Positions 9,643 to 12,094 of a stretch of 64,000 nucleotides of DNA are shown piece by piece. Location: assembly GCA_000146465.1 (NCBI GenBank), contig CP001952.1. One strand, given 5' to 3'. A program made the translations under genes and the position numbers. The notes below the pieces were generated by a model, which saw nothing but the letters and a program-made list of their open reading frames with translations, was not told the DNA's origin and did no database searches. Numbering within the stretch: position 1 is the stretch's first letter; every line of letters begins with the position of its first letter.

Positions 9643-10575
9643 ATGGGAAATGACAAGGTGATAGTTGAGTTGCTCTTTGTGCTGTCTCTCTTGAGCCTTT
9701 CATTGACATTTTTTCCAGAACTGATAAAGGATTCGGTGGATGAAATGGGGTACTTCAAAGGAAACAGGGCCTCCGAGAATTTTAATGTTCTAGGGATACC
9801 AAAAGAAAACAAGATTGAATTCTACACAATGTCAGGGAGTAGGAGTAACATCAGTATTACGGACTTTCCAAACGGATCTCCCATTAGCAGGGCCATGCTC
9901 AGCCTCTATAAAAGAAAAAAAAGGTTCAGCATATATATTGATGAAAAGGCAAGAAGCGTATCGATATACTCGGAATCTGTAATTCCCAAGTACATCTTTA
10001 AGATGAAGGAGGTGCCCAAAAGAAGCCTTACACCTGCAGAAACTATCAAGGGATTGGATCGTTTCTATCTTCCGAATGGTCCTATGGACCAAAAACTGAT
10101 CGAGACATTGGTGTATCTAGAACTTCGAGGATGTCTCGAAGATAAGCTGTTCATCCTTTACGAAAATACACTTATCCTCATCAATGAGGAGAAGCAGATG
10201 ATCTTCTTTGATATAGACCTCGAGCATCTATTTGGGATGATGGTTGAGGAAGTGGTTTCCCAAACAGAAAGAAAAGACGGATCAAATAGACTTCTGATTG
10301 CTTTCAAGGTAGAATCGAATATTTTCTTCTTGTTCAGTCCTGGAGATGAACAGAAGGGATTTGGAAGGAGGATAACTGGAAATACACTTTCAGAGGGCTC
10401 CATAAAGCTTTTCCCTTCGTCAAGGGATGTCCAGATAAAAAATGCAGTATCCAAAGACGATTATGTGGGGATATCCAAGATAATAAGTGACGAAGAAAGA
10501 AAAGAAGGAATAGAAGTGTTGAAGAAGTTGATAATAGACCCTTTCAGATCGGAAGATCTTTCTTTTTTTAGATGA
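9643..10575 (+). CDS. hypothetical protein with N-terminal signal peptide or signal anchor
   Basis: MGNDK is followed by the hydrophobic stretch VIVELLFVLSLLSLSLTFF. The remainder is globular with no recognised domain. Confidence 0.5.
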   Translation: MGNDKVIVELLFVLSLLSLSLTFFPELIKDSVDEMGYFKGNRASENFNVLGIPKENKIEFYTMSGSRSNISITDFPNGSPISRAMLSLYKRKKRFSIYIDEKARSVSIYSESVIPKYIFKMKEVPKRSLTPAETIKGLDRFYLPNGPMDQKLIETLVYLELRGCLEDKLFILYENTLILINEEKQMIFFDIDLEHLFGMMVEEVVSQTERKDGSNRLLIAFKVESNIFFLFSPGDEQKGFGRRITGNTLSEGSIKLFPSSRDVQIKNAVSKDDYVGISKIISDEERKEGIEVLKKLIIDPFRSEDLSFFR

Positions 10576-10723
10576 TAATGGATCAAGAGTCCTAGCTTAC
10601 TGGAATGCTATGAAAAGATCCTTTGGAAAATAAGGTACATTTAATTAGATTGGTGTCATTAATTAACCTTAATGAAGCCCAAAACCTGATAAAAAAGAGA
10701 TTCCATCCTTGGACATTATTACT

Positions 10724-12094
10724 ATGAAACAAATCAATTTGTTTACTTTTTTCCTAGTTGGAATGCCTGGAATACAGTTATTAGTTGTAAACGGGGAGGA
10801 AACTAGTAAGAATACAACCACATTTCCGATTCAGAACTCAGAGGCAATTGAAATAAAAAGAACTTTTGCCGAAAGAATTGCAAAGGCACAAGAGATCTTC
10901 TCCGATGGGGACTTCTTAAACTCATACATTGATCCTGATAAGGTGAAGACATATTACAGGGGAGTTTATGAAACAGTAGTTGTCGATGTTGGAGGAACAC
11001 ATCTGAAGATAAGTAAAGTTTTCATTGATTCTAGCCTGCCCAAAAGAGAAGGCGCTCTGTCCTTTGATGGTGCAATGGAATGTATTCCATCTTTTTACAG
11101 GTATCCAGACACTTCTAATCTTCAGAACGAAGATAAAATAACCTGGAACGATTGGGTTGCAGAGAGGATGGTTGAGTTCTATGGCCAAGACCTTCCAAAA
11201 AAGAAGATTAATGCATCTTTGACATTTTCGTATCCTCTTTTCCAAACATCGATTAGCAATGCAAAAATGGAGAGAGCTACAAAGAACTTCTGCTTCCGGA
11301 TCGATGACCACACATTTGATGAGGATGTGGTTGAGGCTCTTAACACTTCATTGAGAAACAGGAATGTCAATGTTCATGTTAGCTGTGTCATCAATGACTC
11401 TACAGCAACATATATGGCAGGGGCGCTTCGGGGATATGACAACATAATCGGGATTGTTCTGGGGACGGGAACCAACTCTTCTTTCTGTGTGAAGAAGAAC
11501 GGAACAGACAGTGTGACACTCTATAACTCTGAATGGGGATCTACAAGTGTACCAAGAAGTATGCTAACAGAAGCCGACCTTGCCGTTATTACAGACCTGG
11601 AAACCAAAAAGATTTCGTATAGCATCATTGATGTTTTGGTGGGGGGCTGTAAACTCAACGACATGATCCTAAACAGTCTTAAAACTCTACATCCAGAGCT
11701 GTATGAAAAATATATAGACTGTGAGGAGGAATTATCTTTAGCCATCAGTTTAGCTATCAAAAGACAGAATGAAGGTATATTGAAGGAAGACGTCGATTTG
11801 TCACAAACATTGGCTTCCATAATTAACGATTTTAATGCCAGAGGAATGAAGATACTGGCATCCTTGGTAAGTGCCGTAATTGAATCTTGTATGAAAGATA
11901 TGCAGTATGTCACACTGATTCTGAATGGAACAACCTTTTCCTACGAAGACCTTCGGAGGGCCCTCAAAGAAAATGTAAAGGAAATACATCCAAACATCGA
12001 CATAAGACTGGAGTTCCTTGGAAACGCTTCCCTAGAAGGTGCTGCATTTGTGTCTCTCATGAGTTCTGATAATTCTAATCCTGAAAGACTATAG
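10724..12094 (+). CDS. HXK: hexokinase with predicted N-terminal signal peptide
   Basis: Hexokinase motifs VVVDVGGTHLKI, CVINDSTATYMAGAL and LGTGTNSSF are present. The track ORF starts at TTG 10709; the first ATG at 10724 gives MKQINLFTFFLVGMPGIQLLVVNG, a canonical n/h/c signal peptide. Confidence 0.85.
   Translation: MKQINLFTFFLVGMPGIQLLVVNGEETSKNTTTFPIQNSEAIEIKRTFAERIAKAQEIFSDGDFLNSYIDPDKVKTYYRGVYETVVVDVGGTHLKISKVFIDSSLPKREGALSFDGAMECIPSFYRYPDTSNLQNEDKITWNDWVAERMVEFYGQDLPKKKINASLTFSYPLFQTSISNAKMERATKNFCFRIDDHTFDEDVVEALNTSLRNRNVNVHVSCVINDSTATYMAGALRGYDNIIGIVLGTGTNSSFCVKKNGTDSVTLYNSEWGSTSVPRSMLTEADLAVITDLETKKISYSIIDVLVGGCKLNDMILNSLKTLHPELYEKYIDCEEELSLAISLAIKRQNEGILKEDVDLSQTLASIINDFNARGMKILASLVSAVIESCMKDMQYVTLILNGTTFSYEDLRRALKENVKEIHPNIDIRLEFLGNASLEGAAFVSLMSSDNSNPERL

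Follow-up and report, generated by a model that had tools for sequence, protein, structure and literature searches.

A hexokinase with a predicted signal peptide and its putatively membrane-anchored neighbor in Encephalitozoon intestinalis are probably adjacent through synteny

Introduction

Hexokinases that carry a signal peptide have been described in several microsporidia, namely Encephalitozoon cuniculi (ECU11_1540), Nematocida parisii, Antonospora locustae, Nosema ceranae, N. bombycis and Trachipleistophora hominis (HK2/3) (Cuomo 2012, PMC3514677; Senderskiy 2014, PMC3976299; Ferguson & Lucocq 2018, PMC6460350; Huang 2018, PMC6152459). Known since 2012, these enzymes are a textbook case of how microsporidia may reprogram host metabolism. 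Signal peptides were predicted in eight of nine microsporidian hexokinases, and the leaders of the N. parisii, E. cuniculi, A. locustae and N. ceranae enzymes drive secretion in a yeast invertase trap (PMC3514677). Here we analyze the hexokinase gene of Encephalitozoon intestinalis, itself already listed among the SignalP-positive ones (PMC6460350), together with the gene immediately upstream of it, Eint_111420, whose product we call X. Both lie in a stretch of 64,000 nucleotides from contig CP001952.1 (GenBank assembly GCA_000146465.1), hereafter the window.

The N. parisii and A. locustae hexokinases have been reported at the host cytoplasm or nucleus, whereas Encephalitozoon lives inside a parasitophorous vacuole. 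The sole localization data for this genus are unpublished, preliminary E. cuniculi antibody results described in PMC6460350; these place the enzyme at the cytoplasm, internal membranes and periphery, with no host-cytoplasm signal, and so lack the delivery to host cytoplasm or nucleus reported for N. parisii and A. locustae. An initial annotation of the window, made from the sequence alone, treated the signal-peptide hexokinase as a microsporidian hallmark, in agreement with the published work (PMC3514677, PMC6460350). It further proposed that the enzyme is exported into the host cell, and that it forms with X a small host-interface locus.

Results

Our analysis points to two neighbors that are probably unrelated: a hexokinase with a cleavable signal peptide, and X as a membrane-anchored protein, lying side by side through synteny. 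Both open reading frames (ORFs) are found where the initial annotation placed them, on the same strand (Table 1). Because the two translations match the annotated hexokinase and Eint_111420 of E. intestinalis ATCC 50506 from end to end at 100% identity, we assign the window to chromosome XI of this microsporidian, and the earlier recognition of a microsporidian genome from the letters alone is borne out.

Translation from the ATG at 10724 gives exactly the leader that had been quoted for the hexokinase, MKQINLFTFFLVGMPGIQLLVVNG. Its layout comprises K2 in the n-region, an uncharged run over residues 3-24 broken by G-M-P-G, and a (-3,-1) site, VNG/EE (the slash marking the cut); among the five other Encephalitozoon-type orthologs, three (E. 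romaleae, P0003 and E. hellem) have a V-x-G/ site at residue 27. On the Hessa 2005 scale, used here in an approximate form that ignores position effects, the 19-mer hydrophobicity sum of the leader is +3.2, and those of the five other Encephalitozoon-type orthologs are +2.9 to +6.9; on these values the leader is too weakly and too briefly hydrophobic to span a membrane. Mean pairwise identity among the six Encephalitozoon-type sequences drops from 61% over the remainder of the hexokinase to 36% in the leader, whose hydrophobicity is retained in all six despite this sequence turnover. Because identity is low while hydrophobicity is kept, the core is short, a V-x-G site is present and the segment does not appear to span a membrane, we infer the pattern typical of a cleavable signal peptide. 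The earlier call of a signal peptide thus agrees with the anatomy seen by this heuristic, as it does with the published SignalP result for the same protein (PMC6460350) and with the functional leader of the E. cuniculi enzyme (PMC3514677).

The first ATG is the likely hexokinase start, because an upstream box is conserved, the E. cuniculi start has been left uncorrected and Met14 is not conserved. The box, TGATAAAAAAG, is likely to be a core promoter element. When the regions upstream of the hexokinase were compared between the window and two related loci from sequencing-run assemblies, the Encephalitozoon-type L002 and the more divergent L001, TGATAAA occurred in the window and in L001, and the part common to all three was TAAA alone. 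The supplement of PMC2803860 lists the ECU11_1540 upstream signal 'taaaaacaggaacatagccctcaga' with no start-codon correction; in that signal-based re-annotation, which found 5' untranslated regions of <7 nt, the starts of neither ECU11_1530 nor ECU11_1540 were corrected. The next in-frame Met, codon 14 (10763), is non-conserved, and the C at its +4 and +5 positions is disfavored in E. cuniculi start contexts. A TTG at 10709 in the ORF listing is an artifact of the bacterial genetic code.

X opens with a hydrophobic N-terminus, as the initial annotation had stated, and a signal-anchor or transmembrane helix is plausible there from both the hydrophobicity sum and the structural model. The hydrophobic run is 19-22 residues long, without a polar c-region. 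For the segment VIVELLFVLSLLSLSLTFFPELI the 19-mer sum is -0.6, and the Encephalitozoon-type range of -2.1 to -0.3 is insertion-competent on the same scale; the segment is weaker in distant family members (+1 to +5.9). An AlphaFold2 (AF2) model of X built from 15 sequences, with a predicted local distance difference test score (pLDDT) of 78.7, shows a helix over residues 4-35 and, after it, a globular domain. Residues 1-30 are the most conserved 30-residue window of the protein (86% mean identity versus 62% elsewhere), and a hydrophobic N-terminus is kept in all 15 aligned family members. The first 30 codons differ from those of L002 by 11 synonymous and 5 non-synonymous codon changes; since the changes in the DNA are mostly synonymous, constraint appears to act on the protein.

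The helix is read as an anchor because it is long enough to cross a membrane and no other part of the protein is as well conserved. It is most likely uncleaved rather than a disposable leader, which makes X a probable single-pass membrane protein, anchored N-terminally and carrying a clade-specific domain of predicted alpha/beta type. The initial annotation had grouped the two proteins as a secretory pair. Their N-termini differ in kind, the hexokinase having a fast-evolving, putatively cleavable leader and X an ultra-conserved predicted membrane helix. The N-terminal region of X (9643..9732) also bears a Ser/Thr stripe formed by S15, S18, S20 and T22. A simple anchor would not normally combine such conservation with this stripe; the two together suggest packing against a helix of a partner within the membrane. 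N-myristoylation of X (MGNDK...) was considered and rejected, as E. romaleae has Glu in place of Gly2 and only some orthologs agree with the consensus at position 6.

We then asked whether the adjacency of the two genes carries meaning. The best 12-residue Kyte-Doolittle means of the two N-termini are 2.88 and 2.04, and a 12-mer mean >2.0 in the first 40 residues is found in 11 of the 52 long ORFs of the window, most of which encode ordinary membrane proteins (e.g., a tetraspanin, an amino-acid transporter and Der1). At this frequency a hydrophobic flanking gene is expected by chance about 40% of the time, and the hydrophobic N-termini of adjacent X and hexokinase are not beyond chance. X also adjoins the hexokinase gene in L001 and L002, but there the whole block from the kinase to RLI (8-10 genes) is syntenic, and the adjacency of X and hexokinase therefore carries no specific signal. 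In Vairimorpha necatrix, X (VNE69_01119) lies beside zf-CHY, RLI and transporter genes, and the hexokinase is VNE69_03290, on another chromosome by its tag prefix. On L004, a metagenomic microsporidian contig, X again lies beside zf-CHY and RLI, and hexokinase is absent from the contig. Signal-peptide hexokinases span the microsporidia, and X is confined to one clade. The adjacency of X and hexokinase is ordinary gene-order conservation among close relatives, and the proposed host-interface locus finds no support, since the genes adjoin only where the whole block is syntenic and are apart in V. necatrix and L004.

The two genes also differ from their surroundings in rate. Identity to L002 is 56% for X and 53% for the hexokinase, against 71-92% for six of their seven neighbors. 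Across the block 6831..16863, the protein kinase (6831..7667) joins X and the hexokinase at 46-56% identity to L002, and the other six genes stand at 71-92%. A 432-aa V. necatrix gene upstream of X was tried as a divergent hexokinase and rejected; it has no similarity and no hexokinase Pfam match, and is annotated as a transporter. In L001 (7345..9469), the order and strand of the AP endonuclease and syntaxin genes are the inverse of those in the window, and an extra 83-aa ORF follows the hexokinase; its match to the C-terminus of TMEM208/SND2 is weak and below threshold (21.4 bits, cut-off 22.9; E=2.5e-4).

That the downstream gene encodes a hexokinase, as first annotated, is confirmed by both Pfam domains, Hexokinase_1 (PF00349; 1.5e-19, 71 bits against a gathering cut-off of 24.3) and Hexokinase_2 (PF03727; 3.2e-07, 30.4 bits against 24), and by matches to 46 PDB hexokinase or glucokinase sequences (best E=1.5e-18). 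In alignment with human HK1 and an animal hexokinase, the motifs DVGGT, TFSYP, TKNF, N-D, GTGTN and NSEWG are retained. Residues D88-G90-G91, T167-F168-S169-P171, K187, N224-D225, G247-T248-G249-N251 and N268-E270-W271 are invariant relative to animal and microsporidian hexokinases, the catalytic residues being assigned from the yeast residues quoted in PMC6460350. The second glucose-binding Glu (FEK) is replaced conservatively by Asp305 (IDV), and DGSxY by NGTTF, as in other microsporidian enzymes. From these residues the E. intestinalis hexokinase appears to be catalytically competent and is probably active.

For X, the earlier statement that it has no recognizable homolog holds for Pfam and the PDB and fails for its relatives. 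No Pfam family was found for X, and a scan of 15 members at E<=1 gave no consistent family; a profile search against PDB sequences returned a spore germination protein as its best match (E 0.055), which is not credible. An exhaustive profile search recovered a family of 11 cluster representatives, and a second, word-indexed search with the 15-sequence X profile added no further members. The family includes all Encephalitozoon species, Ordospora colligata, V. necatrix and environmental microsporidia, with Eint_111420, ECU11_1530 (M970_111530), EROM_111420, M896_121420 (O. colligata) and VNE69_01119 (V. necatrix) among its members. X is 37-65% identical to the Encephalitozoon-type and L001 relatives and 16-37% to distant members from the profile search, with lengths of 292-337 aa. 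As judged by these searches, the family does not extend beyond the Encephalitozoon, Ordospora and Vairimorpha lineage, and none of its members has an assigned function. When the locus tags of X and its orthologs were looked up in the literature, the one match, ECU11_1540 in PMC11585130, was a hexokinase tag, and supplements likewise gave no functional or localization information on X.

In the AF2 model the domain of X is of alpha/beta type, comprises ~270 residues and is without a confident fold match. All 50 PDB matches listed by Foldseek for this model (m6c0a8a0bd4f2) are DnaN/PCNA sliding clamps, with template modeling scores (TM-scores) of ~0.1. The model contains four alpha-beta-beta-beta units, and the clamp matches probably reflect a repeated local motif and not a shared fold.

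The boxes upstream of X (Table 1) agree with the signal given for ECU11_1530, 'gaaatactttttggagtagtagcccca', and with the CCC-like motif rule of PMC2803860. Two database entries begin before the conserved MGNDK, by 27 residues in P0014 (E. hellem KMI_09g14890, 337 aa) and by 13 in P0015 (323 aa); because the conserved CCCC stands directly before the MGNDK ATG, we doubt these longer starts, which are probably mis-annotated over-extensions.

At the other end, the C-terminus of X (10540..10575) is a disordered tail in which an acidic/serine-rich stretch is followed by an aromatic pair. Most closer relatives have FF here, and E. cuniculi and Ordospora have SLF or SFI, with variants such as SEDLSFFR, NDSSFF, DESSFF, DDSSLFS and TEPLFFV; the motif is found in Encephalitozoon-type and Ordospora proteins and two further related members, and is absent in distant ones. 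The tail could be a short linear motif, such as a di-phenylalanine or FFAT-like one, and, if this were true, the C-terminus of X would face the cytosol.

Table 1. Coordinates of the two genes and their sequence features in the window
Feature	Position	Strand	Remarks
X upstream signals, GAAATAC (9617-9623) and CCCC (9638-9641) directly before ATG	9617..9642	+	Conserved in window, L002 and L001
X coding sequence (Eint_111420, 310 aa, ATG start)	9643..10575	+	100% identity to NCBI Eint_111420
X N-terminal helix, residues 6-28, VIVELLFVLSLLSLSLTFFPELI	9658..9726	+	Putative uncleaved signal-anchor/transmembrane helix
A-rich TGATAAAAAAG box, ~30 nt 5' of hexokinase ATG	10687..10697	+	Putative core promoter element
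Hexokinase coding sequence (456 aa from first ATG)	10724..12094	+	100% identity and coverage to NCBI E. intestinalis hexokinase; Pfam; PDB matches
Hexokinase leader, residues 1-24, MKQINLFTFFLVGMPGIQLLVVNG	10724..10795	+	Putative cleavable signal peptide, cut after VNG
Hexokinase_1 domain, residues 79-234	10958..11425	+	Contains DVGGT, TFSYP, TKNF, catalytic N-D motif
Hexokinase_2 domain, residues 242-445	11447..12058	+	Contains GTGTN, NSEWG; IDV for canonical FEK, NGTTF for DGSLY

The genes flanking the pair are housekeeping genes (cation-efflux transporter, Trm8-type methyltransferase, AP endonuclease, syntaxin, CHY zinc-finger protein and RLI/ABCE1). Rfam families and tRNAs were sought across the whole window and none was found. 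A 193-aa protein at 26886..27467 (+) matches Pfam Tetraspanin above the cut-off (E=5.6e-11). An S19e ribosomal protein ORF at 20225..20698 (-), read from its first ATG, opens with the hydrophobic MVGTLIVRLLVL; its Pfam match begins at residue 25, and Met21/22 are present. A first-ATG reading can thus yield a false 'leader', a caution for signal-peptide calls made by eye.

Discussion

We consider it likely that the window holds two unrelated neighbors, a hexokinase with a cleavable signal peptide and a membrane-anchored X, kept side by side by synteny. The 24-residue leader would direct the nascent hexokinase into the parasite endoplasmic reticulum and secretory pathway, a step backed by the behavior of the E. 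cuniculi ortholog's leader in yeast (PMC3514677), and cleavage would be expected after V-N-G24. The window enzyme is 56% identical to that of E. cuniculi over 98% of its length, and its M1 aligns with the E. cuniculi M1. Its likely destination in this genus would be the internal membranes and periphery of the parasite and the parasitophorous vacuole, rather than the free host cytosol. The helix of X, in turn, would be an uncleaved anchor holding the ~270-residue alpha/beta domain. The E. intestinalis enzyme would represent the known microsporidian 'secreted hexokinase' adaptation. The statement that it is 'exported into the host cell' exceeds what is known for vacuole-dwelling Encephalitozoon, given the preliminary antibody data for E. 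cuniculi with no signal in the host cytoplasm (PMC6460350).

Several observations weigh against this account. The orientation of X is ambiguous from its flank charges, as the difference (C minus N) is negative in nine of the 15 members, zero in two and positive in four, with a range of -3 to +2. No conserved cysteine was found in X family members. The V. necatrix ortholog of X, a hypothetical protein with a low-confidence model (pLDDT 35), is labeled GLOB by DeepTMHMM (PMC10759460 supplement), and membrane or secretory calls are not uniform across the X family. The hexokinase of the same species, VNE69_03290, carries the same label in that supplement; either the signal-peptide call is not uniform across Nosema/Vairimorpha hexokinases or the VNE69_03290 start may need checking. 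The approximations behind the hydrophobicity sums belong here too, and the fast evolution of X and hexokinase is compatible with both being exposed to the host. Lastly, a single hexokinase was found for E. intestinalis, and a 'single hexokinase' is also described for E. cuniculi (PMC6460350); complete secretion would therefore deprive the parasite's glycolysis of its first enzyme.

Being the sole hexokinase of the genome, the enzyme could instead be mainly cytosolic and perform a housekeeping role in the parasite's own glycolysis, its leader being inefficient or bypassed through a start at Met14 (10763) or through poor recognition by the signal recognition particle. The weak hydrophobic core interrupted by G-M-P-G would fit this, as would the GLOB label in V. 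necatrix (PMC10759460) and the E. cuniculi staining, which includes the parasite cytoplasm and not the host cytoplasm (PMC6460350). We nevertheless regard it as unlikely, given that in yeast the E. cuniculi leader by itself drives secretion (PMC3514677), that a hydrophobic leader with a conserved cleavage motif is kept in the six Encephalitozoon-type orthologs, and that Met14 is both non-conserved and followed by the disfavored C at +4/+5. For X, the corresponding question is whether its N-terminus is a cleaved signal peptide and the protein soluble and secreted. Possible (-3,-1) sites (SLS/LT and LLS/LS) do lie within the hydrophobic run, and the flank charges weakly favor N-in, C-out in nine of 15 members; against these stand the length of the run (19-22 residues, with no polar c-region), the single AF2 helix through residue 35, and an N-terminus that is the most conserved part of the protein and constrained at the protein level, unlike the hexokinase leader and typical signal peptides, so that we hold secretion of X to be quite improbable. 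A soluble clamp-fold (PCNA/9-1-1-like) protein, with the hydrophobic N-terminus as a buried first helix, is very unlikely. The 15 members give no Pfam signal for PCNA, Rad1, Rad9 or Hus1, even at E<=1, and the first helix is uniformly hydrophobic, not amphipathic or basic. E. cuniculi has its PCNA, Rad9, Rad1 and Hus1 in ECU05_1030, ECU08_0200, ECU07_1290 and ECU08_0130, the only PCNA-like proteins found in that genome (PMC9053307), and no unfilled clamp role was encountered.

As for the two genes together, the view that they form a functionally linked secretory pair, kept adjacent and acting jointly at the host-parasite interface, draws on the hydrophobic N-termini of both, their faster evolution than most neighbors, the adjacency kept in Encephalitozoon-type and more divergent related loci, and the presence of the E. 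cuniculi hexokinase at the periphery (PMC6460350), where a membrane partner would make sense. Yet the loci that show the adjacency share a syntenic block of 8-10 genes, V. necatrix and L004 keep the X neighborhood without hexokinase, comparable N-termini occur in 11 of the 52 window ORFs, and signal-peptide hexokinases are found across microsporidia with X in one clade; we give a linked pair very little credence. A more specific idea, for which the chances seem slimmest, is that X serves as a membrane receptor specific to this clade and keeps or positions the secreted hexokinase at the surface of the parasite or at its internal membranes. If true, this would account for E. cuniculi staining at the periphery instead of the host cytoplasm, and also for the ultra-conserved X helix, the lasting adjacency and the similarly raised evolutionary rates in Encephalitozoon. 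A more modest possibility is that X represents a new membrane-anchored fold family specific to the Encephalitozoon/Nosema lineage.

Returning to two unrelated neighbors, what this account adds to existing knowledge is the distinction between a hexokinase leader and a conserved anchor in X, the description of X as a small, clade-restricted family without a confident structural match, and the finding that a dedicated locus is unsupported. It also raises the question of how a single, signal-bearing hexokinase supplies the parasite's own glycolysis, and where the enzyme ends up in a vacuole-dwelling genus.

Set beside known systems, the window enzyme resembles the signal-peptide hexokinases of other microsporidia, having a hydrophobic N-terminal leader followed by Hexokinase_1 and Hexokinase_2 with the same catalytic motifs, and shows no structural difference from them. 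With the canonical cytosolic hexokinases and glucokinases, such as human HK1 (1cza) and yeast Hxk2 (1ig8), it has fold family and catalytic residues in common, but it is highly divergent (best PDB match at E=1.5e-18) and differs in its predicted N-terminal signal peptide, in Asp for the Glu of FEK and in NGTTF for DGSxY. X, for its part, is built like type II or signal-anchor single-pass proteins, in that a globular domain comes after a single N-terminal helix long enough to span a membrane; relative to signal-anchor proteins in general, its putative anchor is unusually conserved, more so than its own globular domain.

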